Origin: an uncultured cyanobacterium
Lineage (GTDB): Bacteria > Cyanobacteriota > Cyanobacteriia > Cyanobacteriales > Nostocaceae
Direction: 5' to 3'
NCBI GenBank assembly: GCA_963772205.1
Contig: CAVYXS010000258.1
Span: forward strand, 16,325-80,324
Length of the DNA: 64,000 nucleotides
Part shown: piece after piece, positions 2,843 through 37,180 of the stretch
Position numbering within the stretch: position 1 is the first letter of the stretch
Layout: every line of letters begins with the position of its first letter
Notes under the pieces: model-generated
What the model was told of the DNA's origin: nothing
Databases searched by the model: none
What the model saw: the letters and a program-made list of their open reading frames with translations, nothing else
Position numbers and translations under genes: made by a program

Positions 2843-4367
2843 AATTTCCTTACTTTCTCCAAACTGATAAACTCTGTCGTCTTATGCCAGTATTTAGCTT
2901 CTTAGCGTCTGCACAAGGGTACTTGTCCTCTAGGATGAGGACTTAATTCCTGCTGATCATGGGTAGGTCAAGAGCCTCTATTATGGTTGTTTACAACAAA
3001 TTAGAGGTTATGGCTGTCACAAGCATTAATTTCGGTGATTTTACGGCACTTTTAACCATCATTCGCCATCAGAAATAAATTTTTTTTCTTTTGGCGCTAC
3101 TGTAGCGGTATAACTTTAAGCCACCTTTACAAATTGTTTGAGTTCTACTACATCTAAGTTGTAGATCCCAGAAATTGCAGGTTTTCCAATTTCAGTGCTT
3201 GTCTTTCTTGCCAGTGATTTATAGGTTATTCCCTACTCATCCTGCCAAGCTTCGGACAGCATAGTATTTGAATGGGGTACTACAGCTATACACCCTTTTC
3301 TCCTGCCAATAGAGACGTGAAATTTCTTGTCTCTACATTACGAATAAACAAAGCAGTAGTAGCCGCGCTTATACGGCTATTGAGACATGTTTTGTGACTT
3401 CGTAATTTCATATTAAATACTAGCATGGACTAATAATAGCAAAATAGTTGTTTTATTTTGAATTAAAATTGCTAGTAAAGTTTTATTCTAAATCTCCTAG
3501 CTCACGGAAGGTAAAAAGCGGTGAGGATTGTTCTAGGGCTTGTTTGAGGTAGTGAGTATTGCGGCTAGGCTTTTATAAAAATTCATCTAATTTAGACGAG
3601 CAGTTTTGAGAGTGAGTTACATCCTTTGATTGTCTTGATTGTCAGGATTTTGCTGTCTGTTGATCCGCGTGAGCCAAAAAGTGGTCATAGTATTGTGCAT
3701 ATCTCTGGGAAGAATAAATTTTCCCACATATATATAGTGCTTTGTTGCCACCACCAAATGTTCATCATCAGATTTAACAATTCTATATAACCAAAAATTC
3801 CCCCTTAGTGAATGATTAAGGGATTTTGGCGCCAGTGGCTGCCAATCCTTTTGACATGAATATCTCGTGATAACCTAAAGTAGATTTAATTTGCTGATTT
3901 TTTCTCTTCAGGGGATGATCATAACTCCCTTGAAGAATGTAACTCTTCTCGCGGACACTGCATAACAGGTAAATTCACAAGAGTCAAGAGTCAAAAGAAA
4001 GGAATAGGCAAGAGGCTATAGGAAATAAATATTTTCCTATAGTCGCGTACCCATTCCCGATAGCCTTGGGAATTTGGACTAGTGGACTTTGAGAAACAAA
4101 GTGGAGGGGATTTAAATTTGCAGCGGTAATTACTTTTTTTGCTGTTGCGGCTGGGAGATTGAGACAAATCTCGGCGATCGCCATTCTACAACTAAAATTT
4201 TCATGGTGATCCTGAAACTAAAATCACTAAGTCTTTAATTATCAGCTTATTAACAGCTAACCTAGAATCTAGGGCAAAAAAAGTATAGCTCATTTTTGAG
4301 AGTAACCTGTCTGTAGTCGTGATTTCTCAGGTGGGTATGGTAAGCTTGAAAATTTTGGTTGGTGCTA

Positions 4368-5369
4368 ATGGAACTTCGTTTTAAGGTCATTCGACAGCAA
4401 GAAAATGCCTCGCCAGTAGTGCAAACTTACCTATTGGAGGCAGAACCTAGCAATACAATCCTGGATTGTCTCAATCAAATTAAGTGGGAGCAAGATGGGA
4501 CTTTGGCATTTCGCAAAAATTGCCGCAATACCATTTGTGGTAGCTGCGCTATGCGAATCAATGGACGTTCGGCTTTAGCTTGTAAGGAAAACGTTGGCAG
4601 TGAACTGGCCAGATTACAAAAGATATCATCCTCAGAACCTCAGGTAAATACCAGTCCAGAAATTACAGTAGCGCCTCTCGGTAATATGCCCGTAATTAAG
4701 GATTTGGTTGTAGATATGCACAGTTTTTGGGATAATCTGGAGGCGGTTACTCCTTATGTGAGTACAGCCGCCCGACAAGTTCCAGAACGAGAATTTTTGC
4801 AAACACCAGAAGAGCGATCGCGCCTCGATCAAACTGGCAATTGTATCATGTGTGGAGCTTGCTATTCTGAATGCAACGCCCGTGAAGTTGATTCAAACTT
4901 TGTCGGACCCCACGCCCTAGCAAAAGCTTACCGCATGGTAGCAGATTCGCGCGATCGCCAAACCGAAACTCGCTTAGAAATTTACAACGAAGGTACTCAA
5001 GGTGTTTGGGGTTGCACCCGTTGTTTATACTGCGATAGTGTTTGTCCTATGGAAGTCGCACCACTAGAACAAATAACCAAAATTAAACAAGAAATTCTCT
5101 CACGCAAACAAGCCAGCGACAGCCGCACAATTCGTCACCGCAAAGTATTAATAGACTTAGTTAAAGCAGGTGGCTGGATTGATGAACGTCAATTTGGTTT
5201 ACAAGTAGTAGGTAATTATTTTAAAGATTTAACAGGATTGCTCAGTCTTGCACCCCTCGGCTTGCGGATGATCATCAAAGGTAAATTCCCCCTTTCTTTT
5301 GAATCTTCCGTAGGAACTCAACAAGTGCGATCGCTCATCGAATCCATACAACAACTAGAAAATAAATAG
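4368..5369 (+). CDS. sdhB: succinate dehydrogenase/fumarate reductase iron-sulfur subunit
   Basis: 2Fe-2S motif CRNTICGSCAMRINGRSALAC, 4Fe-4S/3Fe-4S Cys clusters CIMCGACYSEC and CTRCLYCDSVCP. Start chosen at MELRFKV (ORF opens at 4359). Confidence 0.85.
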   Translation: MELRFKVIRQQENASPVVQTYLLEAEPSNTILDCLNQIKWEQDGTLAFRKNCRNTICGSCAMRINGRSALACKENVGSELARLQKISSSEPQVNTSPEITVAPLGNMPVIKDLVVDMHSFWDNLEAVTPYVSTAARQVPEREFLQTPEERSRLDQTGNCIMCGACYSECNAREVDSNFVGPHALAKAYRMVADSRDRQTETRLEIYNEGTQGVWGCTRCLYCDSVCPMEVAPLEQITKIKQEILSRKQASDSRTIRHRKVLIDLVKAGGWIDERQFGLQVVGNYFKDLTGLLSLAPLGLRMIIKGKFPLSFESSVGTQQVRSLIESIQQLENK

Positions 5370-6022: not shown

Positions 6023-6520
6023 CTACGGTGGTGGACTCACGGTGGCACCATTGGGAATATCTAACTCTATATTTGGCCCCCGGTCTAGGACTTCAATATC
6101 CCACTGACCACGGCTAGCCGTTTCAAATACAACATAACGTCCATCTGGACTGATTCCAGGCTTTCTGACCCAGCCACGATAGATTGGGGTGAGAATTTGC
6201 GATTGTTCGATAGCGCGATCGTAGAGTGCCACCACTGGTCTACCTTGGTCGCTAGTAAGATAAACAATATAACGCCCTGTGTAGCTCAGGCTAGGACTTT
6301 CGGCAATTGTTTCCCGTCGGTTTAAGCCTGGTATGCCGATAAAGCGTTGCTGTTCCAAGTCGTACATCAGTAACTGGTGATTACCATTACGATTGGAAAC
6401 AAAAGCTAAAAAGCGCCCATTTCCACTCAAAGTTGGTTGCTCTTCCGTGTAGCGACTATTGAGGGATGTAGTCCCAATGGGGATATCGCTCGAACTACAA
6501 GATACAAGCAGACTTACCAA
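6023..6520 (-). CDS. TolB-like periplasmic beta-propeller (PD40 repeat) lipoprotein, paralog of neighbour
   Basis: Same PD40 repeat pattern (GRFLAFVSNRNGNHQLLMYDL; GRYIVYLTSDQG; GRYVVFETASRGQWDI). Lipobox LLVSC. Confidence 0.65.
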   Translation of the reverse strand: MVSLLVSCSSSDIPIGTTSLNSRYTEEQPTLSGNGRFLAFVSNRNGNHQLLMYDLEQQRFIGIPGLNRRETIAESPSLSYTGRYIVYLTSDQGRPVVALYDRAIEQSQILTPIYRGWVRKPGISPDGRYVVFETASRGQWDIEVLDRGPNIELDIPNGATVSPPP

Positions 6521-6631: not shown

Positions 6632-7525
6632 TTAATACTTGTCATAATTGGTTGAATTATCTACATCGTCATCTGGCTTGGCGATCGGTTTGTATTCTAC
6701 ATAATCAGTGGGGATCGCGTCATCATCATCGCGTTCTCTGCGAGGAGTTGAGTCACTAGGGGGACGACGCCTCCTGGGTTTGGGGGTAACATCTTCCTCA
6801 CGACTTTCTGGACGCTGAGGGCTGTTGTTACCACGACGGGGAGGTTTTCTGACTTCTCCTGCAGAACTGTCCCAATCATCAACTTCCCTAGGGGCTGAAC
6901 CCCAATCATCTTCTTGTGTTTCGGGACGACTTGCTGGACGCCCTGAACTCCGCCGGCGCGTTTTATCAGTAGATTCCGGCTTTTCTGTGCTGTTGCGCCG
7001 TTCAGAACGACGGGGTGGTTGATCTTCATAGTAGTCATCGCGAGGCGATCGCTCATCCCTGCTACCTCGAATTCGCGCACGCGGGGGGCGTTCCTCGTCT
7101 TCATAAGGTAATGGTTCTAATTCTGCGTCTACCTCGGCTTTATACCTCCGCTCATAGGAATATTTATTACTTACTGGTCGGTCTTCGTCTACAATCGGCG
7201 TATTGCGCTTGGCTTGCTGGGTGGCTATACTTCGCAGTCGAATACTTTCAACTGCAAAGAATACGGTTGTGCCGACTAAAAGCAGCTGACCAAATTGTAA
7301 AATTGGGTCTAGTCGCCAACCTTGGAAGATCAGAATAAAACCACAAAGTAAGCCTACCGCCGCAAAAAATATATCTTGATCTCGTGACAGTTCGGGACGC
7401 ACAGTCCTCAGAAAATACAGTGCTGCTCCAGACACAGCTAGGAAAATTCCTAGAATACTGGCTGAGTTCGCCCCAAAATTTACCTGAGCCAGAATACTGG
7501 CTGAATTCAGCCAAAAATTTATCAT
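6632..7525 (-). CDS. ycf66: Ycf66 family membrane protein with long charged (R/D/E/P-rich) C-terminal tail
   Basis: N-terminus NSASILGIFLAVSGAALYFLRTVRPELSRDQDIFFAAVGLLCGFILIFQGW matches the Ycf66_N domain. The remaining ~200 aa are low-complexity RRxE/D. Confidence 0.75.
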   Translation of the reverse strand: MINFWLNSASILAQVNFGANSASILGIFLAVSGAALYFLRTVRPELSRDQDIFFAAVGLLCGFILIFQGWRLDPILQFGQLLLVGTTVFFAVESIRLRSIATQQAKRNTPIVDEDRPVSNKYSYERRYKAEVDAELEPLPYEDEERPPRARIRGSRDERSPRDDYYEDQPPRRSERRNSTEKPESTDKTRRRSSGRPASRPETQEDDWGSAPREVDDWDSSAGEVRKPPRRGNNSPQRPESREEDVTPKPRRRRPPSDSTPRRERDDDDAIPTDYVEYKPIAKPDDDVDNSTNYDKY

Positions 7526-8207
7526 AAAACCTCGCGGGATGTGGGAAACTCAGCTTTTAAAAGCTGAGAGGGAAACGGCACGAGCGAACGCCACTTGCTA
7601 CAACTTTGGGAACCAAAGCAATGCAGTGACTCCTTTAGTCGCAGTCCCCTTACGGGGGGGTGGTAGATAGAGGAACAGTATTTACCACCTTCCCTGTATG
7701 CCGAGAATCGCCTTGCTGTTCCAGTAATGTTAGCTTAGACCTGTTATCAGAAGCTCAGTAGGCTGAAAGCACTGTTCCAGTGACCTTAGAACTGTTTAAC
7801 TTACAGCGACAGAGCGGGGAACTAGCTACGCATTCCGAGGTGTCGTGACTCAAATAACGGCTACCCTTAGACTACAATCAGGGTGGTCTGGTCAGTACGG
7901 CTTGCTTGATTTCTCTTACAAGCCCAGTCCCTTTAGGGCTGGGTTACTGACTGCTGTTTTCCCAATATCAAATCTATGTTAGCGAGTCACAATTAAAATC
8001 ACTACTCTAATCCGGCACAATAATATAGATTAAAGCTTCAAAGCATCTAGTAAAGAAGCTCTGAAGCTATGTACCTCAAACTAAAAAGCTGATATCTGTC
8101 AGGTAAGTATACCTTGTCCTGGGTTGGAGGAATTGATGCTCCTAGGGGATTAAGGTAAATAGCTGACAGACAATCGATTATGAGGGTCTAATTAACTCCC
8201 TAAATGA

Positions 8208-10714: not shown

Positions 10715-10795
10715 GCGGATGTGGCGGAATTGGTATACGCGCACGCTTGAGGTGCGTGTGGCTTTGCCTTGCGAGTTCGAGTCTCGCCATCCGCA
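10715..10795 (+). tRNA. tRNA-Leu (anticodon GAG), long variable arm, CCA not encoded
   Basis: GCGGATG acceptor stem pairs with CATCCGC. Anticodon stem CACGC/GCGTG with loop TTGAGGT. Variable arm TGGCTTTGCCTT. T-arm GCGAG-TTCGAGT-CTCGC. Confidence 0.8.
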
Positions 10796-11794: not shown

Positions 11795-12112
11795 GTTAAG
11801 GAATATAGCGGTTATCGATTGAGTCCAATACACTCGTAGGGGCACGGCAGTGCCCATAGGTGTCAACTTAACGTGAAACCCTTGTCAAGACGTGATTTTG
11901 AATTAAATCACCTACCATCAGAATCCGCGTTACCCCACCCCGGTTTTGTCTAAAGCGAAAACCGCCCCTCCCCTTGGCAAGGGGAGGGGTTGGGGGTGGG
12001 GTAAAACGCCTGTGGGATAAGCGTTTGAGCTTAAGTTGACACCAATGGGCAGTGCCGTGCCCCTACATGCGACGATATAATTTTGTATTGCATCCAACTG
12101 AGAACAGCTATA
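11795..12112. mobile_element. nested MITEs: a 185-bp MITE with GGTGTCAACTTAAG terminal inverted repeats (11859-12043) inserted in the central palindrome of a ~110-bp MITE (GGGCACGGCAGTGCC family)
   Basis: The outer element halves (…CCAATACACTCGTAGGGGCACGGCAGTGCC | GGGCAGTGCCGTGCCCCTACATGCGACGATATAATTTTGTATTGCATCCAACTGAGAACAGCTATAG) flank the inner element. A second copy of the inner MITE is at 18523-18708. Confidence 0.7.
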
Positions 12113-12160: not shown

Positions 12161-14308
12161 TTATGGAGTTACAAAATCTAAATGATCGCCGGGGAAAGAA
12201 CGTAAATCCTGTACCGTACCTTCCATTTTCAATTTTCCTTTTTCCAAGAAAATAATCCAGTCTGCACGCTCAATTACCCTCGGACGGTGGCTAATTATAA
12301 TTGTAGTTTTGCCTTGTCTAGAAAATAACAGTTTATCTAAAACTTCTGATTCACTGCTGGGGTCAAGTCCGGCTGTGGATTCATCTAAAATTAGTACAGG
12401 TGGATTATGCACAATGGCGCGTGCTAACGCTAGTCTTTGTCTTTGTCCGCCAGAAAGATTAGCGCCAAATTCTCCTAAAACTGTTTGATATGTGTCTGGT
12501 AATTTACTAATAAATTCGTCAGCCAGGGTAATTTGACAAGCGGTAACAATTTCTTCAAAACTGACATCTGGATAACCTAAGCGGAAGTTCTCAATAATTG
12601 AGCGACTCCAAAAATGAGCATCTTGTGGGACTAAAACTACTTGTTTTCGTAAAGATTCTAAAGATAAATCTTGCAGGTTATACATACCATAGCGGATATT
12701 CCCAGATTGAACTGTATGTAACCCGGCAATTAATTTGGCTAAGGTACTTTTACCACAACCAGATTTTCCAATTAAAGCAACAACTTTACCACCGGGAATT
12801 GTGACTGAAAAATCTTCTAATAAGTCTATCCTACCAGCATAATAAAAATTTAACTTACTACAGCATATATCTGTATAACCAGGAATATTTGCTCCAGGTT
12901 TTTGTATATCTGGAGAAGATTCAGGCGTACTGTTGATAACTTCTTGAATACGGGTATTAGCAGTTTGTACATGGGCAAAATCATCTACAATACCGATAAT
13001 AAAGCTAAATAAGCCAGTGACATTACCAGTCAGGCTCGAAAATGCTATTAATTGGCCTATACTTAATTCTTTACTAATAACAAGTTGACTGCCAAATAAT
13101 AATAAACCTGTACCACCAATATTAGCAACTAGTCCAGAAAACTTTTGGTTGATAATTTGAATTTGGATGGTTGTTAAAGATAACTTAGTTAAGCGGGTAA
13201 ATCGGCTTTGTAATTCTTCCCAAAATTGTGCTGCAGCCGTAGTAGTTTTTAGGGTTAATGCACCTTTAAAAATTTCTACTAACACCCCTTGATTTTCTGC
13301 ATCCAACACCATATATTTACGGACTTTTTGCCGCACAATAGGGAGAAAGGCTATTGTAGTGATGTTCATTAAAGCCGAAATCAATAGCGCAAATAATGAT
13401 AATTTCCAGCTATAATAAAACATCAAACATAAGCAAACCACTGCCATAAAAAATCTGGTAGGGAAACCAATTACTCCTTGAGCAATAAAACTATTGATTT
13501 TCTCAATATCTCTCAATCTGCTGGCAATTTCTCCACTCCGACGAGATTCATAATATTTTAAAGGTAAAGATAATAGTTTTTGTCCAAATTCTAACATCAA
13601 CTTTAACTCGAAGCGTCGGGCAAAATTAGCAATTAGCATATTTTGCACCAATTCTAAGCTGGTGTTGATAATGTGCATGACAATTACTGCTAATACTAAA
13701 GAGAGCAGTAAATCGGTATCACCTCGCACTAAAACATCATCAGTGAGAATCTGTATCAAAAAAGGAGAAGCTAAAGACAATAAGCCAATTAATTGGGAAA
13801 TTACCAAGGCTTCTAAAATTAGACCTCGGTATGGTAAAATTCCCTGGATAACCTTTTCAAAAGTGTTAAGTTTGTCATCAGGTTCAGCAAAAAAACGATT
13901 TGCATCTGGTTGGAGTAACAACACTACGCCATTTTGCCAACCCTCAAGTAGTTCTTCTTGAGAAAGATAACGAATACCTATTGCTGGATCGCCAATAATA
14001 TATTTTTTACCACGCTGACCATACAAAACTACCCAATGATATCCTTTCCAATGGATAATTGCTGGTAGTGGCATTTTTGACAGTTTTGCCAGAAAATCAC
14101 CTGATGCTTTACCAGTTCGAGTATAAAGACCTAGGGCTTCTGTACCACGTCTTAAACCTAACAACGTAGTTCCCAATTGACCGCTACCAATGGAATCACG
14201 GATACGGTTAAGTGTTAAATTACGTCCATAGAATTTGAGAATAGAAGCAACACAAGCGGCGCCACAGTCTTCTTCACTGTACTGAATTACAACTGGGTAT
14301 TTTTTCAT
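12161..14308 (-). CDS. peptidase C39 domain-containing ABC transporter (double-glycine leader peptide processing/export, SunT/LagD-like)
   Basis: N-terminal C39 papain-like domain with catalytic Cys (EEDCGAACVASILKFYG) and His (HWVVLYG), six-TM ABC exporter domain, C-terminal ATPase (GKSGCGKST Walker A, LSGGQRQRLALARA signature, ILDEST Walker B). Confidence 0.9.
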   Translation of the reverse strand: MKKYPVVIQYSEEDCGAACVASILKFYGRNLTLNRIRDSIGSGQLGTTLLGLRRGTEALGLYTRTGKASGDFLAKLSKMPLPAIIHWKGYHWVVLYGQRGKKYIIGDPAIGIRYLSQEELLEGWQNGVVLLLQPDANRFFAEPDDKLNTFEKVIQGILPYRGLILEALVISQLIGLLSLASPFLIQILTDDVLVRGDTDLLLSLVLAVIVMHIINTSLELVQNMLIANFARRFELKLMLEFGQKLLSLPLKYYESRRSGEIASRLRDIEKINSFIAQGVIGFPTRFFMAVVCLCLMFYYSWKLSLFALLISALMNITTIAFLPIVRQKVRKYMVLDAENQGVLVEIFKGALTLKTTTAAAQFWEELQSRFTRLTKLSLTTIQIQIINQKFSGLVANIGGTGLLLFGSQLVISKELSIGQLIAFSSLTGNVTGLFSFIIGIVDDFAHVQTANTRIQEVINSTPESSPDIQKPGANIPGYTDICCSKLNFYYAGRIDLLEDFSVTIPGGKVVALIGKSGCGKSTLAKLIAGLHTVQSGNIRYGMYNLQDLSLESLRKQVVLVPQDAHFWSRSIIENFRLGYPDVSFEEIVTACQITLADEFISKLPDTYQTVLGEFGANLSGGQRQRLALARAIVHNPPVLILDESTAGLDPSSESEVLDKLLFSRQGKTTIIISHRPRVIERADWIIFLEKGKLKMEGTVQDLRSFPGDHLDFVTP

Positions 14309-14342
14309 AGTTAAAAATTAGTTTTTATGCACCGATTGATAA

Positions 14343-14395
14343 AGAACCCCACCCCCAACCCCCTCCCCGCAAGCGAGGAGGGGGCTATTATATAC
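14343..14395. repeat. GC-rich hairpin repeat (CCCCACCCCCAACCCCCTCCCCGCAAGCGAGGAGGGGGCT family)
   Basis: Near-identical copies at 18463-18515 and 32941-32992. Longer related versions at 23329-23412, 29996-30075, 37031-37133, 44648-44740 and 26633-26685. Confidence 0.75.
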
Positions 14396-14928
14396 CTCAC
14401 TAGATCGGGAAACGCTATTTATAGATATATTGCTATGAGAATGATACATAATGTGTAAAAATTCGCTCTGTCCAGATCCCCGACTTCTTAAAGGAAGTGG
14501 GGTGTCTGATTTGTCAGGAATAATTTAAAACTGTGATGGCAATATAATTTAGCAGTAAAATTCCATAAAAATTGAAAAAGTCGGCTTTTAAATTGTGGTT
14601 AATGAATTTTTATTCTTAGCTTGCAAGCATCCGAAATATCCGTTGATCAATGCATTAGGAAAGCAACAGGCGAATGGTACGAAAACATCGCCAATCAATA
14701 ATGACATGCGGTAGTATCATGTTGATACTTATAACTTAAACAATATTACTCTTAATAAGCTGGTTGCAAAGACTATATACAAGATATAGCTTTTACAACC
14801 AGCTAATGCTATGGTAGGCATAAGCCATCAAAACCCTAAGGCTAACAGAGTGCGGCTATCCCTATTAGCCGCAACTCTACCTAATTTTTGATAAATTTAA
14901 AGCTTATACGAACAGTTAGCATTTAGGA

Positions 14929-15261
14929 CTAGGATGGGCAGCCGTTATAACCGCCGCCACCATAACCGCCGCCACCATGACCGCCGCCACCATAGCTGCT
15001 GCTACCACTGCTGCTGCTGCTGCTGCTGCTGTTGCCATTATTGTTGGTATTACAAATAGTGGTATTCACAGTAATAGTGGTACTCACAGAATAAGACGGG
15101 CTAGGAGAAGATGTCGGCGCAGATCCACCGCAAAGATCGCTTAAAAACGAACCTAAATCTAAGAAACAACCACCGGAAATTGTGGATTCATTGTTTTCAG
15201 ACAAATCAGACAGGTAGGTTTCGTCAATAGAAAGTAGTTGGTTTTCAGATGCGATGATCAT
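14929..15261 (-). CDS. double-glycine leader bacteriocin-like precursor peptide 1 (Gly/Ser/Asn-rich, 4-Cys core)
   Basis: Leader MIIASENQLLSIDETYLSDLSENNESTISGG ends in the GG cleavage motif (LSxxELxxIxGG type). The core starts CFLDLGSFLSDLCGG… and carries GGGGHGGGGYGGGGYNGC tracts. Confidence 0.75.
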   Translation of the reverse strand: MIIASENQLLSIDETYLSDLSENNESTISGGCFLDLGSFLSDLCGGSAPTSSPSPSYSVSTTITVNTTICNTNNNGNSSSSSSSSGSSSYGGGGHGGGGYGGGGYNGCPS

Positions 15262-15362
15262 GAATAATTCAGTCCTTTTTGAAGTTTTGACTTGTATTTA
15301 TGAACTTTTGAAGATACTTCACAGTACAAGCTGCTAATGGATGCAGTGTACAGAAAATATCA

Positions 15363-15656
15363 TTAGTGTCCGCCGGAGCTGCTGCCGGAGCTGCTACCGC
15401 TGGTGGCATTGTTGCCGTTGGTGTTGGTATTGGTTATATAGTTATTGACTATAACCGTAGTCCCAGGGCTCTGACTAGGAGCAGGCTGTCCATAACCGCC
15501 GCCGCTGCCGCCACCGAATAAACAGCCTAAAAGACCAAAAAGCCCACCGAATAAAGAAAAACAACCACCAGAAATTGTGGATTCATTTTCTTCAGACAAA
15601 TCAGATAGGCAGCTTTCGTCAATGGAAAGTAGCTGGTTTTCGGATGCAATCATCAT
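15363..15656 (-). CDS. double-glycine leader bacteriocin-like precursor peptide 2 (paralog)
   Basis: Leader MMIASENQLLSIDESCLSDLSEENESTISGG is ~85% identical to peptide 1. Core CFSLFGGLFGLLGCLFGGGSGGGYGQ… The ~100 nt upstream is also duplicated. Confidence 0.75.
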   Translation of the reverse strand: MMIASENQLLSIDESCLSDLSEENESTISGGCFSLFGGLFGLLGCLFGGGSGGGYGQPAPSQSPGTTVIVNNYITNTNTNGNNATSGSSSGSSSGGH

Positions 15657-16451
15657 GATAAGTTTCGTCCTTTTTGAAGTTTTTACGTTTGTTTATGAAC
15701 TTTTAAAGATACTTGACAGTGCTAACTAACAATATATGCACTGTGCAGAAAGTATCAATTTTTTAATAACAGTAACTCCAGAAGATAAAAGAAAATTGTG
15801 GCTTCATTTATCTGGAATTACTGTTATTTAACTAGTTCATGTATCTAAACCTACAGTATCTACGAAAAAAAGTATAGTCTTTTTTGATTTTTTTTCGATA
15901 AAGCAAAAAATGTATCTGTAGCTATTAAGTATTTATACGCATAAATTAATTGTAAACCTTCATACTATTCTCTAACATCAGAGATTTCACATTTTCAAGA
16001 CTTATCTTTTGCGTAAAATACGATAAAAATTGAGAACTAAGTTGATACGTATTACTGGCTGTATAATATCAAGCTACAGCAGAAATAATGTAAATTTCTC
16101 ATAAAAAAAGAAAATATCGGTAAAATATGATATCTTCTGAAATAAGTGAAAATAACACATTTTAGAATCCAAAAAGTATAAAAAAACATTAAATATTCAT
16201 TTAACTATATTGAAAATACGTCCATATTGAAAAATGTAGTTTTTGTAATTTTAATAGTACTGGCGTAAAGTAAATGTAACCGAAAAAACAATATTTTGAG
16301 ATTGCTACGTCATTCCTCTAGCCTAACGGAAGCAAGTTACGCAATAACATAAATGAAAACTCACGCTTTCAAAATGGATGAGGTGTATGTGTATGGCAGA
16401 AAATAACTACTGTTTATTTAGCGTAAATTTTGGCATTTTTTGAGAAAAACT

Positions 16452-18428
16452 ATGATTAAAGTTTTGGTGGTAGATGACCAAAAAACTATTAGAGAGTACT
16501 TAAAATCTTTGATTCAAAAAGAAACAGATTTAGAAGTAGTTGGGGTTGCAGATAATGGCAAAACTGCTATTCTTGAAGTTGCTAAATTACATCCAGATGT
16601 CGTGCTAATCGATATGGAAATGCCGGAGATGGACGGTATTCATGCGACAAGGATTATTAGTGAAAGATTTCCGAAAACGAAAGTTTTGGTGTTGAGTGGT
16701 TACGACAATTATCAATATATTCAGGATTCGATAAATGCTGGAGCAATTGGTTATTTACTAAAAGATGCTTCTCCAGAAGAACTTAGAGACTCAATTCGCT
16801 TAATTGACAAAGGCTATAGTCAATTAGCGCCTGGATTAATTAGTAAAATTATTACCCAACAGACAACATCCAATTCAGAAATAGTCAAAGTTGCCAATAA
16901 TTTTGATTCTCAGGTTTCAGGAATAGTTGTTAAGGAAAATCCGCCTACTTTTTTGAATGTAATTCATCCAGACGAACTATTACCCAATACGACTCGTTGG
17001 GCAGAAGTAGGAGGGGTATTTTTAATTGGAACTGTGATTACAGGCATAATTTTGTCTGCTGTTATTGAATACAAGGTAGTTGTAAAAGCACCTGCAAATG
17101 TGCGTCCGGCTGGAGAAGTACGCTTAGTACAAGCAACACTAGAAGGAACAGTTAAAAGCATTCTTGTTAAAGAGAATCAGATGGTGAAAACACAAGATAT
17201 TATTGCCACCATCGATGATAGTCAACTACAAATAAAAAAAAGTCAACTTCTAGACAATATCCAGCAGAACCAAATGCAACTGATGCAAATGGATGCTCAA
17301 ATTAGTGGTATTAATAGACAAATAGACGCAGAAACAGACCGTAATCAGACAGCGATCGCATCGGCGACAGCAGACTTACAACGCACGCGAAGAGAATATC
17401 AGCAAAACAAATTTGCTGTTAAAGGTCAATTACAAGAAGTCCAGGCTAATATTAAAATTGCCCAAAATGAATTACAAAAAGCCGAATTTGACTTGCAATC
17501 AATGCAAGCGAATCTGAAAGTGACAGAAGCAGCATTAAAAGTTGCTAAACTCAAGAGCGATCGCTATCAAAGTATTGCTACATCCGGCTCCATTTCTCAA
17601 AATCAATTGGAAGAAGTTCAATTAGGGGTACAACAGCAACAACAATCTCTGATTTCACAAAAAGCGAGTTTAGAAGCTCAAAAGCAAGTTGTCGAAAGAC
17701 AAAGACAAGCGATAGCAGTAGCAATGACCAAATATAAACCAGCAGCAGCAGCCATCAACCCTACTAATGCTGTTTTATCAGTGGTAGAAGGAAAAATTGC
17801 CCAAGAACGGGCTGCAGGTGAAGGAAGTTTAGCACGATTGAAGCAAGAAGAAAATAGTTTAATTCAGCGGAAAATCGAAATTCAAAATATAATTAACAGC
17901 GCCAAAAAAGACTTAGGACAAATAGAAAAACAACTGCAAGCAACTGTGATTCGTTCTCCCGACAAAGGGACAATTTTGAAATTAGAACTGCGAAATCCGC
18001 AGCAGTTAGTTCATGCGGGAGAAGCGATTGCTCAAATAGCCCCTTCTGAGGCACCTTTAGTAGTCAAAGCCAATGTCAGCGCTGAGGATATTAGCAAAGT
18101 AAAAGTCTGTAAATCTCCAAAAGTTGCACTCTGCGAACAAGGTAAAGTGCAAATGCGAATTTCCGCGTATCCTTACCCAGATTATGGCATTTTGCAGGGC
18201 GCTGTCAGAAGTATTAGTGCTGATGTGATTACACCCGCAAGTAATCCCATTGTGCCAACTGCACCTTACTATGAAGTGACTATCGAACCAGAGAAACTTA
18301 ATTTAAAAAAAGGTAATAAATTGTATCCAATCCAAGCAGGAATGGAAGTAAACGCCGAAATTATTTCCCAAAAAGAGACTTTTTTAACCTTGATTCTGAG
18401 AAAAGCACGGCTTATGACTAATTTATAG
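16452..18428 (+). CDS. response-regulator receiver domain fused to HlyD-family membrane fusion (secretion adaptor) protein
   Basis: N-terminal CheY-like REC (VLVVDDQ…, phospho-acceptor Asp in VVLIDMEMPEMDG, LVLSGY, YLLKD). Then a TM helix (VGGVFLIGTVITGIILSAVI), long coiled-coil and HlyD C-terminal beta-barrel (ATVIRSPDKGTILKLEL). Start taken at ATG 16452 (ORF opens with TTG at 16440). Confidence 0.85.
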   Translation: MIKVLVVDDQKTIREYLKSLIQKETDLEVVGVADNGKTAILEVAKLHPDVVLIDMEMPEMDGIHATRIISERFPKTKVLVLSGYDNYQYIQDSINAGAIGYLLKDASPEELRDSIRLIDKGYSQLAPGLISKIITQQTTSNSEIVKVANNFDSQVSGIVVKENPPTFLNVIHPDELLPNTTRWAEVGGVFLIGTVITGIILSAVIEYKVVVKAPANVRPAGEVRLVQATLEGTVKSILVKENQMVKTQDIIATIDDSQLQIKKSQLLDNIQQNQMQLMQMDAQISGINRQIDAETDRNQTAIASATADLQRTRREYQQNKFAVKGQLQEVQANIKIAQNELQKAEFDLQSMQANLKVTEAALKVAKLKSDRYQSIATSGSISQNQLEEVQLGVQQQQQSLISQKASLEAQKQVVERQRQAIAVAMTKYKPAAAAINPTNAVLSVVEGKIAQERAAGEGSLARLKQEENSLIQRKIEIQNIINSAKKDLGQIEKQLQATVIRSPDKGTILKLELRNPQQLVHAGEAIAQIAPSEAPLVVKANVSAEDISKVKVCKSPKVALCEQGKVQMRISAYPYPDYGILQGAVRSISADVITPASNPIVPTAPYYEVTIEPEKLNLKKGNKLYPIQAGMEVNAEIISQKETFLTLILRKARLMTNL

Positions 18429-18522
18429 ACAAGAGCTATAGCGTTTCTCTGTCAAGTGAGGTAAAAGAACCCCACCCCCAACCCCCTCCCCGCAAGCGAG
18501 GAGGGGGCTATGATGTACCATT

Positions 18523-18708
18523 GGTGTCAACTTAACGCGAAAGCCTTGTAAAAACGTGATATTGAGGTTACTCACGTACCATGATGATCCGCGTTACCCC
18601 ACCCCAGTTTTGTCTAAAGCCAAAACTTCCCCTCCCCGCTTGCGGGGAGGGGATTAAGGGGTGGGGTGCAATGTATGTCGGGTAAGCGTTTGACCTTAAG
18701 TTGACACC
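18523..18708. mobile_element. second copy of the 185-bp MITE with GGTGTCAACTTAAG terminal inverted repeats
   Basis: GGTGTCAACTTAACGCGAAAGCC … internal GC-rich hairpin … CTTAAGTTGACACC is collinear with 11859-12043. Confidence 0.7.
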
Positions 18709-19054
18709 ACTGGGCACTGTTCCCTACAGCGCGTGATACAATTTTGTACTTGGTGGTATGTTTACCTGAAAACAGATGTCAGCCAAGCGGTACAGGAACG
18801 CTTTGAGTAAGCGATCGCCATGACAACTATTTAAACGAATATGATATAATCCGGTCGCAACGACTTGGATACAAGCAGACATCATATTCAGAAAACGTAA
18901 CTAACCACAAAAACACCGATTACTACCAAAATATCATCAAAATTCTGGGTAAGAAAATTTAATGTAATTAGCAGACTTCAAAAATGGGAAACCTTTTGGT
19001 TTAATAAACCAATCAAGCAAGTAAAGAATTTGCCAATATGAGGTATAGGTTTTA

Positions 19055-24127: not shown

Positions 24128-25225
24128 TTATGCTTTTACACATAGCTTTGTACTCCGTTTGATAAGTTGAACTTTTGCTGGGCTGAATTGCCCAATTCTG
24201 CGCCAGTTGTGGTCATACACAGAAACATTTTTAGTTTTTGGAGTCTGCGTATAGCCACCAATCCAGCCAATATAAAATTTACCCGCTTTTTCAGCTTTCA
24301 CTAAGTCACCAGAACGTAATCCGAATGGCGTAATTGTTCCACCTTTGCGCTTTCTGTTGCCAGGAATATCTTTAACAGGGTTCTCGAAATGAAGCTGACG
24401 ACGGAATAGATTTGGACGCGCAATTATGCGGAATGGTGCAGGTGTAATAGCAACGAATCCTACCCAGCGATGTCCCCGACTATTAGCAGTGTGGAATTTC
24501 TCAAACCGCATGAAGTTGCTAGATGCTAATGCAATCCCGTCATGAGCATGAGTCTCTGGAGTTTGTTTTGATTTGTCTTTCTTGTCTTTAGATAATCCTA
24601 ATTGCTGCCTGAGTATTGAAGTCTGCCACCCTTCTTGTGTATTGGTTGGTACAATTTCACAGAGCCATTCCAGCATCACTTTTTGACCAACCATCACAGG
24701 ACTAAAACCTTTGTCGCCTTTCGCTTTGATGTATTCGTAGGTGATTTGAGTTACAGGAAATAATTTGACTAATTCTTTGGTAATTCGTAATTCTAATTCC
24801 TTGTTAGCGCGAATACTGGGAGGCAATTTATTCTGTTTGCGGTTGTTAAACCTTTTTTGACGGTGCGCCCTTTGATTAAACGTTACTTTGCGATTTATCC
24901 TTCTACCTCGTCTAGCACGTCTCAATAATCGTCTACCATCCATCTTTTTGGTGACATCTGAAAATGGCAATATTAGATGTGCCATAAATAATGTGAATTT
25001 AACAGACTGGACACCAACGCCAGTAAACTTTTTACCAGGGTCTAATCCCAAAGCTATTGATTGAGTGTCATAACCAGACGGTTCCACTAATAGCTGAATG
25101 CCAAAAATATTGAGGTCATTCTGTACAATCTTGGCTTTACCTTCCTTAAGCCAACGTCTAGCTCTACTGGCTTTTGTTGGCATCATGGGTTTACCGTTTT
25201 TATCTAACACTGGAACACGAATCAT
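24128..25225 (-). CDS. isrB: IsrB-like OMEGA RNA-guided nickase (IscB homolog lacking the HNH domain, IS200/IS605 superfamily)
   Basis: N-terminal RRXRR/PLMP domain MIRVPVLDKNGKPMMPTKASRARRWLKEGKAKIV; RuvC-I IALGLDPGKKFTGVGV; Arg-rich bridge helix RRLLRRARRGRRINRKVTFNQRAHRQKRFNNRK; RuvC-II ITYEYIKA; RuvC-III THAHDGIALASS. No CxxC…H…N HNH insertion between RuvC-II and III. 365 aa. Confidence 0.8.
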   Translation of the reverse strand: MIRVPVLDKNGKPMMPTKASRARRWLKEGKAKIVQNDLNIFGIQLLVEPSGYDTQSIALGLDPGKKFTGVGVQSVKFTLFMAHLILPFSDVTKKMDGRRLLRRARRGRRINRKVTFNQRAHRQKRFNNRKQNKLPPSIRANKELELRITKELVKLFPVTQITYEYIKAKGDKGFSPVMVGQKVMLEWLCEIVPTNTQEGWQTSILRQQLGLSKDKKDKSKQTPETHAHDGIALASSNFMRFEKFHTANSRGHRWVGFVAITPAPFRIIARPNLFRRQLHFENPVKDIPGNRKRKGGTITPFGLRSGDLVKAEKAGKFYIGWIGGYTQTPKTKNVSVYDHNWRRIGQFSPAKVQLIKRSTKLCVKA

Positions 25226-32918: not shown

Positions 32919-33269
32919 TTATTGTTGTACGTAAGTCGGGTGTACAAGAACCCCACCCCCAACCCCCTCCCCGCAAGCGAGGAGGGGGCTATTACATCAA
33001 AAACTCCATCCCCTCTGGGTGGAGTTTTTTATAATTTTTATTTATATTTTAGACACAAATATATAGCGCTTCTCAGTTGGATGCAATACAAAATTATATC
33101 GTCGCGTGTAGGGGCACGGCACTGCCGTGCCCTTACTCAACCGATAACCTATATATAGCGTTTCTCGCCCTAGTTAGGTACACCCGTAGGGCACGGCAGC
33201 TGTTCCTTACACCGCGTGATACAATTTTGTACCTCATCTGAATGTGTTGTGCTATAAGCCACAACAGTA

Positions 33270-37020: not shown

Positions 37021-37180
37021 CTAATAGACCTGTTGCAAAAGTCCCCTAACACCCCACCCCCAACCCCTCCCCGCAAGCGAGGAGGGGAGACTTTGACGTA
37101 AGTCAAAGGCGGAGTGGGGTTATTTCTTTTGATTTATGCCCCATGCCCAATGCCCCATGCCCCATGCCCCATGCCCAATA

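Follow-up and report, generated by a model that had tools for sequence, protein, structure and literature searches.

A probable export cassette for two double-glycine-leader peptides, with a receiver-fused HlyD-type adaptor, in a Calothrix-like cyanobacterium

Cyanobacterial clusters that combine double-glycine (GG) leader peptides with a peptidase-containing ABC transporter (PCAT) and an HlyD-type adaptor have been described before. The group III bacteriocin-type clusters of Wang, Fewer and Sivonen (2011), such as asr5139-alr5148 of Nostoc PCC 7120, comprise a short-type C39-ABC gene lacking a cNMP domain, an HlyD gene and at least one GG-leader precursor, with no LanM, SurA or second ABC gene (PMC3140520). 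The locus described here, found in a 64-kb stretch of DNA (hereafter, the window), is alike in these traits and fits the group III type, and the HlyD part of its adaptor shares ~44% identity with its counterpart on the PCC 7120 alpha plasmid. It differs from group III in the N-terminal receiver of its adaptor, of which that paper makes no mention (the word "regulator" occurs 0 times), in a leader that is not of NHLP, Nif11 or HetP type, and in a conserved structured non-coding element that follows the precursors.

The sole characterised cyanobacterial cluster of such architecture is the EbfG1-4/PteB system of Synechococcus elongatus, whose EbfG products are biofilm matrix and amyloid proteins rather than antibiotics (PMC4997328, PMC9981879, PMC12267927). 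In strain PCC 7942 (EbfG1-4, PteB, Synpcc7942_1132), genes for several small GG-motif proteins adjoin those for a C39-ABC and an HlyD protein, a likeness of architecture and description; the products are secreted matrix or cell-surface proteins, EbfG1-3 form amyloid and no immunity gene has been described (PMC4997328, PMC9981879). The peptides studied here also have an amyloid-like, N/T/S-rich beta-prone segment in their cores. However, no EbfE-like second peptidase was seen at this locus, and the S. elongatus adaptor has not been reported to carry a receiver. Export of class II microcins (CvaAB-TolC for colicin V, MceGH for microcin E492) and of MccAB1 likewise joins a GG-leader precursor, a PCAT, a membrane-fusion protein and TolC in diderm bacteria, and class II microcins are, as here, Gly-/Ser-rich mature peptides below 10 kDa. 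MccAB1 is a dual-function microcin (PMC13188072), and amyloid formation and biofilm promotion are also known for some microcins. The present locus shows no sequence similarity to those systems, lacks genes for immunity or siderophore modification and has an adaptor fused to a receiver (REC).

Exporter and receiver-fused adaptor

The exporter gene (12161-14308, minus strand) encodes a 715-aa protein with the Pfam domains Peptidase_C39, ABC_membrane and ABC_tran, arranged as a C39 domain (aa 1-136; 13901-14308), a six-TM exporter domain and a nucleotide-binding domain. It aligns over its full length with PCAT1 of Clostridium thermocellum (4ry2, E 1e-98) and with ComA of Streptococcus (8hf7), both of which share the Gln/Cys/His/Asp peptidase site; Q9, C15, H91 and D107 align with the catalytic residues of PCAT1. 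These two systems are monoderm and lack a membrane-fusion partner, in contrast to the cassette. Since the TM segments, Walker A, signature motif, Walker B and H-loop are also all present, the PCAT is intact and has a complete catalytic make-up.

On the opposite strand, the 658-aa adaptor (16452-18428, plus strand; Pfam Response_reg and HlyD_3) consists of a cytoplasmic NarL/VraR-like receiver (aa 1-120; 16452-16811), a linker, a single TM segment assigned by hydropathy (aa 187-205; 17010-17066) and a periplasmic HlyD-type membrane-fusion domain, with structural matches to the receivers of VraR, DesR and NarL and to E. coli HlyD (8dck_C). The ATG at 16452 (MIKVLVVDD...) is most likely its start, rather than the TTG at 16440, in line with the start of all homologues. 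An alignment of 17 REC-HlyD proteins shows D8, D54, S82 and K104 to be invariant and D9 to be replaced once, by Glu in P0016; the receiver is complete, with canonical phospho-acceptor residues. The pairing of exporter and phospho-regulatable adaptor had been regarded as uncharacterised, and indeed no description of a REC-HlyD fusion was found in the literature searched; the fusion itself, however, is not peculiar to this locus, being an architecture widespread in cyanobacteria and usually next to a C39-ABC gene. Distant REC-HlyD genes (37-49% identity) directly adjoin a short C39-ABC in three other loci (L005, L006, L007), and the cargo genes nearby have the leader motif E-x-x-S-[TA]-[IV]-x-G-G in common.

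Precursor peptides and the structured element

Both precursor genes lie on the minus strand. Peptide A (110 aa; 14929-15261), delimited by its ORF and a family alignment, has its leader at 15169-15261 and its core at 14932-15168; peptide B (97 aa; 15363-15656), delimited by its ORF, has its leader at 15564-15656 and its core at 15366-15563. The leaders are identical at 27 of 31 positions and both end in ESTISGG. As each is 31 aa long, the predicted mature peptides have 79 and 66 aa, and not 80 and 67 as given earlier. The boundary is fixed by two proteins (P0291/P0292) that adjoin a long-type C39-ABC and carry the B core family behind an unrelated GG leader (MKISDINYVEDIK...VVGG), with homology starting exactly after the GG. 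Curated GG-leader, Nif11 and NHLP models, the check proposed in the earlier note, matched neither leader even at E<=10. Both leaders have Glu at -7, a position at which GG leaders usually carry a hydrophobic residue.

The cores are near-neutral and of low complexity (62-67% G/S/T/N), and AlphaFold2 predicted no fold for them (pLDDT 53). In the mature peptides, a hydrophobic Gly-zipper head of 12-18 residues is followed by a beta-prone TTVIVNNYITNTNTN-type segment and then by a Ser/Gly/Asn tail. Both cores do begin with CF and contain four and two Cys, respectively, but the cores of most orthologues have no Cys, so Cys is not conserved and "disulfide-only peptides" does not describe the family. 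Likewise, the Gly-rich tract (GGGGH/GGGGY) ascribed to both peptides is present in A, where three 15-nt tandem units encode it, and absent from B. Orthologues of A type occur in L010/L012 and as P0008, and those of B type in L010-L012 and as P0007, P0009 and P0010; the window, L010 and L012 retain both paralogues together. While the leader is conserved, the cores diverge or are swapped: they are ~55-65% identical where the ABC proteins are 90-93% identical, and in NIES-2100 a Pro/Cys-rich core stands behind the same leader. The peptide family is tiny and confined to a few Calothrix/Stigonema-type genomes.

Directly downstream of the last precursor gene lies a 171-nt structured, RNA-like non-coding element (14745-14915, minus strand), present in every cassette (seven copies in six cassettes) at ~87% mean column identity, although the flanking intergenic DNA is unalignable. 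It has no ORF and no period-3 pattern, folds with an MFE of -68.3 kcal/mol (z = -6.9), and where a substitution alters one side of a predicted pair without breaking it, the outcome is mostly G-U on the sense strand. A covariance model (R1) scores 134-212 bits in every cassette and finds nothing comparable elsewhere. The element is clearly under constraint. Rfam holds no family for it, it contains no canonical U-tract terminator, and no compensatory double changes were seen, there being too little variation for a true test; it could also be a DNA-level operator. Upstream of peptide B (15731-15831, minus strand), a promoter scan gave a candidate TTGATA-16-TATATT (15758-15731; 10/12 match), preceded by a 21-nt inverted repeat (15762-15782/15811-15831) conserved in the window, L001, L010 and L012 and partly in L011; this region may have a regulatory role.

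Layout and distribution of the cassette

The double-glycine processing and export locus proposed in the earlier note is supported, with its three parts (C39-ABC, two GG-leader genes and opposite-strand HlyD adaptor) lying where they had been placed. Its neighbours (accC, a tRNA, a chorismate pyruvate-lyase-like gene, a DUF3352 gene and an MscS-like gene) include no tailoring enzyme; among the larger ORFs scanned in the window, none encodes a histidine kinase or a TolC-like protein. None of the four ORFs is disrupted, and no catalytic or phospho-acceptor residue is missing. The accessory nature of the locus also holds: it is AT-rich (GC 36.7% in the ABC gene and 38.0% in REC-HlyD, against 44-47% in flanking genes), the corresponding site in Tolypothrix tenuis PCC 7101 lacks the ABC and peptide genes, an orphan REC-HlyD being all that remains, and a Stigonema MAG carries the cassette at two other chromosomal sites. 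The order HlyD, then divergently B, A, RNA element and ABC is kept in the window, L010 and L012; it is also kept in L001, L011 and L013, where peptide content varies, a duplicated, single or different peptide replacing the A/B pair.

As for the repeats said to bound the locus, that at 14343-14395 cannot be a boundary, as it sits within the locus and belongs to a 56-nt GC-rich palindrome (14341-14396, 33 nt upstream of the ABC start codon) dispersed in five copies across the window (14360, 18483, 18629, 32964, 37064); its insertion before ABC is seen in this genome only and not in the other five cassettes. Flanking MITE-like copies do exist and bracket the cassette: a left one of ~230 nt (11836-12066), missed earlier, which lies a short way beyond the 3' end of the ABC gene and has terminal inverted repeats of 51 nt, and a second (18515-18719) in the right-hand repeat block (18464-18719), together with palindrome copies at 18464-18519 and 18629-18665. 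Their terminal motif occurs at these two places only in the window and is absent from the related loci.

Proposed export and possible roles of the peptides

Our best explanation is that transcription of the A and B precursor genes starts in the AT-rich divergent region and that the 171-nt element most likely ends or stabilises an abundant peptide transcript, limiting read-through into the transporter gene. The C39 domain would cut after Gly31, and the transporter would hand the products, by analogy with PCAT and CvaAB-TolC systems, to a channel of the adaptor and an unlinked TolC-like outer-membrane protein. The cytoplasmic N-terminus of HlyD couples substrate engagement to TolC recruitment. 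As the receiver occupies this place, its phosphorylation by a kinase encoded elsewhere would probably control, at the post-translational level, how the export machine assembles or works. Processing and export of the peptides we consider very likely, and the mechanism as a whole reasonably probable, while for gating by REC phosphorylation we see about even chances. The parts are separable: Stigonema MAGs have natural REC-less variants with intact peptides and ABC, indicating that REC is a regulatory add-on outside the transport core, and T. tenuis has the orphan REC-HlyD. REC control may thus be weak or serve another purpose.

We tentatively favour secreted, self-associating surface or matrix peptides of the EbfG kind, a role at least as likely as that of bacteriocins. 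The bacteriocin or microcin assignment of the earlier note, made from composition only, is not supported. It would make the peptides unmodified two-peptide (class IIb-like) or class II microcin-like agents of a competition island, their Gly-zipper heads entering the membranes of competitor cyanobacteria. The export set is indeed canonical for class II bacteriocins and microcins, the A and B paralogues stay paired, the hydrophobic N-termini of the cores contain GxxxG-type motifs, Ser-rich tails recall class IIb microcins, and both the patchy distribution with swapped cargo and the fast core divergence relative to the ABC protein would suit it. However, no immunity-like or other extra ORF is conserved in any of the six cassettes, the cores gave zero matches to bacteriocin or microcin families, siderophore-attachment genes are absent, the peptides lack cationic character and low-complexity polar sequence makes up two-thirds of each core; moreover, in cyanobacteria a GG motif is no predictor of antibiotic activity (PMC4997328, PMC12267927). 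We regard antibiotic peptides as rather unlikely. The lack of a conserved extra ORF, the near-neutral low-complexity cores, the absence of a predicted fold and the EbfG precedent make a non-antibiotic role slightly more likely.

It is improbable that the peptides are diffusible quorum or developmental signals with REC closing a sensing-secretion loop, as in ComC/ComAB or the proposed HetC/PatS relation. Elsewhere among bacteria, PCATs do secrete signalling peptides (ComA structures are among the PDB hits), the receiver is fused straight onto the export machine and a regulator might bind the conserved inverted repeat that precedes the peptide genes, but the mature products, at 57-79 aa and with long low-complexity tails, do not resemble known peptide pheromones, no locus examined has a linked kinase or DNA-binding regulator, and the cores vary too much between close strains for a receptor-matched signal. 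We give equally little weight to a decaying or silent relic, losing parts piecemeal and with a REC fusion of no current regulatory role. The REC deletion in Stigonema, the loss of ABC and peptides in T. tenuis, the hairpin repeat before the ABC gene and the MITE-like copies on both sides could be so read; against this stand the intact ORFs, the conservation of ABC and of the 171-nt element, and a Stigonema MAG cassette that is duplicated rather than degraded.

The kind of system is already known, and its switch fusion, peptide family and conserved RNA-like element are the unstudied parts. Judging from the sequence, this Calothrix-like cyanobacterium probably carries a small, accessory and self-contained cassette that encodes two secreted-peptide precursors, the transporter that would cut and export them, and an adaptor fused to a phospho-switch.

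An export cassette of the group III type

The four genes that the earlier note had placed between positions 12161 and 18428 are intact there, and their content points to a cassette for the processing and export of double-glycine (GG) peptides. A short C39-ABC transporter, an HlyD-type protein and precursor genes are present, with no LanM, SurA, S8 peptidase or second ABC gene, which by gene content assigns the locus to the known cyanobacterial group III of GG-peptide clusters defined by Wang et al. 2011 (PMC3140520). What is new is the fusion of a receiver domain to the adaptor, the family of peptide cores and a conserved RNA-like element. As had been claimed, no modification enzyme is adjacent, genes for LanM, LanB, YcaO and rSAM proteins being all absent nearby.

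The exporter (715 aa; 12161-14308, minus strand) has the Pfam domains Peptidase_C39, ABC_membrane and ABC_tran. It matches over its whole length both ComA and PCAT1 (4ry2), a bacteriocin transporter of solved structure, the latter over residues 2-707 with an E value of 1e-98. Its Gln9, Cys15, His91 and Asp107 fall on the PCAT1 peptidase positions, giving a complete set of catalytic Cys/His, oxyanion Gln and Asp, and Cys15 stands opposite the Cys-to-Ala substitution in entry 7n87; the N-terminal domain is therefore a catalytic C39 domain and not the Cys-less C39-like type. Transmembrane segments were detected, and the nucleotide-binding domain has Walker A, signature, Walker B and H-loop (motifs at 514, 618, 638 and 670), as in type I ABC exporters. 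It is likely that this protein cuts its cargo after GG. Exact look-up of the transporter returned no record; its 90%-identity cluster also holds proteins of Calothrix sp. NIES-2100, C. brevissima NIES-22 and a MAG labelled Stigonema ocellatum SAG 48.90.

Both precursor genes lie on the minus strand, A (110 aa) at 14929-15261 and B (97 aa) at 15363-15656. Their leaders are 31 aa long, identical at 27 of 31 positions, and terminate in ESTISGG, so the predicted mature peptides have 79 and 66 aa, one residue less than the 80 and 67 previously given. The leaders had been taken as canonical, and the curated GG-leader models (bacteriocin_sig TIGR01847, NHLP, Nif11, ComC and others) gave no match even at E<=10; at the same threshold, Pfam and NCBIfam searches with leaders, whole precursors and orthologues returned only noise (TafF, YxzE, DEC-1). 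The boundary between leader and core is nevertheless well supported by sequence features. GG occupies positions 30-31 (-2/-1), and hydrophobic residues stand at -4 (Ile), -12 and -15 (both Leu); Glu at -7, in place of the usual hydrophobic residue, is a deviation. The leader has a charge of -6/-7 and is thus strongly acidic, a C39 transporter is its neighbour, and in the family alignment it is near-invariant while the cores diverge. The most telling evidence is the reuse of the core: a core-only profile search recovered two proteins, P0291 and P0292, in which an unrelated GG leader (MKISDINYVEDIKQEEKLDKVVGG) precedes the same core, and the homology starts precisely after GG. Wang et al. (PMC3140520) had noted leaders of this second, HetP-like type, and P0292 adjoins a long-type cNMP-C39-ABC transporter and a rotamase.

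A motif E-x-x-S-[TA]-[IV]-x-G-G is also common to cargo near distant pairs of receiver-fused HlyD (REC-HlyD) and C39-ABC genes, as in ...PEDESAIAGG (locus L005) and ...DEQASTVQGG (locus L007). The L005 cargo gene (4208-4492, minus strand; GG leader ...LSPEDESAIAGG) has an extraordinary core, in which Arg/Lys blocks alternate with Asp blocks (HRRRRRKKRRKGRGDDDDGGKGRRRGDDDDGG...).

Peptide cores and their possible role

The cores begin with a hydrophobic, Gly-zipper-like head of 12-18 residues (e.g. CFSLFGGLFGLLGCLFGG), followed by a Y-G-x-S-Q-P linker, a beta-prone segment of the TTVIVNNYITNTNTN type and a Ser/Gly/Asn tail. Gly, Ser, Thr and Asn together make up 62-67% of the residues, the net charge is about zero and the Cys residues are not conserved. 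In the peptide of Calothrix NIES-2100, this leader and hydrophobic head are joined to a Pro/Cys-rich core. AlphaFold2 on the peptide alignment gave no fold (pLDDT 53, pTM 0.13), a model too poor for a fold search. Searching 5.8 billion proteins with a core-only profile retrieved the same family plus the two members with a different leader, and no structural, S-layer or cell-wall family of the kind that the earlier note had named as evidence against its reading. As judged from these comparisons, the A/B core, with its hydrophobic Gly-zipper head, Asn/Thr ladder and Ser-rich tail, would represent a new family of secreted peptides, used with two leader/exporter systems.

We lean, with reserve, towards A and B being self-associating surface or matrix peptides. 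Of the cyanobacterial clusters with this architecture only EbfG1-4/PteB has been studied, and the proteins that it exports belong to the biofilm matrix and the cell surface, some being amyloid (PMC4997328, PMC9981879). The likeness between EbfG1-4 and the A/B peptides is architectural and compositional only. A bacteriocin would be expected to travel with an immunity gene, and when all ORFs of at least 20 aa from the six cassettes were compared with one another, only the peptide genes, and frames overlapping them, proved to be conserved. A 45-aa hydrophobic ORF at 16052-16189, considered as an immunity candidate, is conserved nowhere. A recent survey stressed that antibiotic activity is not predictable from the GG motif (PMC12267927), and at least one microcin combines antibiotic and matrix-type functions (PMC13188072). 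A bacteriocin is judged less likely than a surface or matrix role, and a signal function improbable. The cores also differ from siderophore microcins (class IIb), which have a Ser-rich C-terminus ending in Ser: the tails here are Ser-rich but end in GGH, CPS, GW or KP, and no glycosyl- or acyl-transferase genes for siderophore attachment occur in or beside the cassette. The earlier note is confirmed as to the locus, with minor corrections, and supported in part as to its interpretation, the label bacteriocin not being established.

Distribution and surroundings of the cassette

The peptide family is very small: a family profile searched against 5.8 billion proteins yielded 8 members, and a pattern scan of one genome per species in 185,579 species found four loci. 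The order of genes is constant, with HlyD divergent from the peptide gene or genes, which are followed by ABC, and the pair of A-type and B-type paralogues is kept in the window and in the two loci of a Stigonema MAG (L010 and L012). Several comparisons support an accessory and mobile cassette. It occupies the same chromosomal site in Calothrix NIES-2100 (L013) and in a JGI genome (L001); at the corresponding site of Tolypothrix tenuis PCC 7101 (L003), REC-HlyD stands alone, without ABC or peptides; and the 5.45-Mb Stigonema MAG carries the whole cassette twice, at unrelated sites (L010 and L012, the latter being the same locus as L009). In L009, the A-type precursor gene (6881-7195) was left uncalled and an overlapping 78-aa ORF in an alternate frame (6814-7050, minus strand) was annotated instead. 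Small GG-peptide genes of the A/B family are under-annotated.

In the window, one flank of the cassette holds accC, a tRNA and a chorismate pyruvate-lyase-like gene, and the other DUF3352 and MscS-like genes. The GC content is 36.7% for the ABC gene and 38.0% for the adaptor, against 44-47% for the flanking genes. The locus had been described as an island bounded by repeats, which stands only in a different form. The proposed left repeat (14343-14395) lies inside the locus and is one of five window copies of a dispersed GC-rich palindrome with core CCCCTCCCCGCAAGCGAGGAGGGG (14341-14396, 18464-18519, 18629-18665, 32964-32987 and 37064-37087), typically found just 3' of genes, which rules it out as an island edge. 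What does bracket the whole cassette is a pair of MITE-like elements of about 230 nt, each with terminal inverted repeats of 51 nt. The two copies, at 11836-12066 and 18515-18719, are in direct orientation and were not found in related loci. The palindrome at 14341-14396 sits 33 nt upstream of the ABC start in the window genome only, being missing from the other cassettes, and could affect transporter expression.

The tRNA gene (10715-10795, plus strand) has accC on one side and the chorismate pyruvate-lyase-like gene on the other, and the left edge of the cassette is some 1.4 kb away. A HEARO RNA (RF02033, 129 bits; 7724-7951, minus strand) is located upstream of a ycf66-like gene, apparently with no adjoining HNH/IscB ORF; HEARO is an omega-RNA class associated with IscB/HNH ORFs. 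Not beside it, at 24128-25225 on the minus strand, is a gene whose 365-aa product matches Pfam RRXRR (E 3e-48), a family that occurs in RNA-guided nucleases of the IscB/IsrB type.

A receiver-fused adaptor and a structured element

The adaptor (658 aa, plus strand) starts at the ATG at 16452, the start used by all homologues. It has an N-terminal receiver (REC), a linker, a single hydrophobic transmembrane segment (aa 187-205) and an HlyD-type periplasmic part, and thus the one transmembrane helix and periplasmic domain of HlyD proteins with a cytoplasmic part enlarged by REC. It matches HlyD_3 and Biotin_lipoyl_2, with a structural match to E. coli HlyD (8dck_C), and TIGR01843 at E 1e-40, yet below the model cutoff. 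The closest structural relatives of the receiver are those of VraR, DesR and NarL. Its key residues are D8, D9, the phospho-acceptor D54, S82 and K104; in the 17 aligned REC-HlyD proteins all are kept, except that D9 is Glu in one (P0016).

Close orthologues with REC (70-81% identity) occur in Calothrix and Tolypothrix strains and more distant ones (37-49%) in metagenomes and MAGs, and the nearest HlyDs without REC are about 60% identical across the HlyD part. Exact look-up of P0015, a REC-HlyD identical to that of the window, gave no record. When aa 1-260 were searched exhaustively against 1.84 billion representatives, many proteins of 585-750 aa aligned from receiver through transmembrane segment to HlyD, and seven of ten sampled matches carried both Response_reg and HlyD_3. 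At least 42 REC+HlyD proteins were collected, and those with organism names are all cyanobacterial (Xenococcus, Pleurocapsa, Dendronalium, Nostoc minutum and unnamed Cyanobacteria). A plasmid tblastn match in Nostoc UHCC 0302 (H8), the sole apparently full-length one, was discarded as a fusion since its alignment ran on into the adjacent ABC gene. In the full-text literature searched, no account of an HlyD with a fused receiver was found. The window adaptor belongs to a widespread but unstudied receiver-fused subfamily.

A neighbor-joining tree of the HlyD part does not support a single origin of this fusion: the REC-bearing proteins form about three main blocks with REC-less relatives between them. 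As the REC domains look alike across the blocks, this suggests repeated loss of REC or exchange of modules. The Stigonema cassettes give a direct view of loss: their HlyD begins at residue ~125, inside the retained linker, with no upstream REC remnant. A short C39-ABC gene lies directly upstream on the same strand in three of four distant REC-HlyD loci examined (L005, L006 and L007, not L008). No histidine kinase is adjacent to the window cassette or conserved in related loci, and the larger window ORFs that were scanned included neither a kinase nor a TolC-like gene. P0158 joins a receiver of this type to a protein with a GNVR domain (Wzz-like, polysaccharide co-polymerase), which suggests that such fusions may extend to other envelope-spanning export adaptors.

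Directly 3' of the last precursor gene, every cassette has a structured non-coding element, 171 nt long in the window (14745-14915, minus strand). Its other copies are at 6160-6330 and 6789-6954 in L001, 10326-10502 in L010, 10293-10463 in the related locus L011, 10418-10594 in L012 and 10388-10543 in L013, and mean column identity is ~87% for the seven copies in six cassettes. NIES-2100 keeps the element although its peptide core is unrelated and the remaining spacer unalignable. Stop codons interrupt every frame of the element, which shows no codon periodicity and is predicted to fold into a long multi-stem domain and a 13-bp hairpin (MFE -68.3 kcal/mol, z = -6.9). The one-sided substitutions that keep pairs are mostly G-U on the peptide-sense strand, and would be A-C mismatches on the opposite one; there are no double compensatory changes in the alignment, and covariation is not demonstrated. 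A covariance model detects one element per cassette and two in L001, in which the element was duplicated along with the peptide gene, and nothing comparable elsewhere within 245 kb. Rfam gave no match to the element in the locus at E<=1 or in the whole window at gathering score, and metagenome scans with its invariant blocks gave no matches. Judged by its location and predicted fold, the element, which separates the highly expressed precursors from the transporter gene, would serve as a transcript end, as a stability element or as an attenuator. It is a candidate for a new RNA motif (3'-UTR or attenuator) tied to peptide-precursor genes. Gene B is preceded by an inverted repeat of 21 nt, which is conserved, and by a good predicted sigma-70-like promoter.

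A wider and more doubtful proposal is that the REC-HlyD proteins constitute a cyanobacteria-wide class in which a phosphorelay acts directly on a secretion machine, where phosphorylation of the receiver might switch the assembly or activity of a PCAT/TolC peptide exporter without transcription, while in this cassette the undescribed structured RNA might set the ratio of precursor to transporter. In cyanobacteria, few secretion loci are as abundant, or as little understood, as GG-leader peptide clusters, and to our knowledge only one has a known biological role, in biofilm matrix formation. If the receiver gates export, it would be a direct phosphorelay link to a type I-like secretion adaptor. 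The cassette offers a compact natural test case with built-in controls, in the form of one relative with REC deleted, one without ABC and peptides, and one with a swapped cargo.
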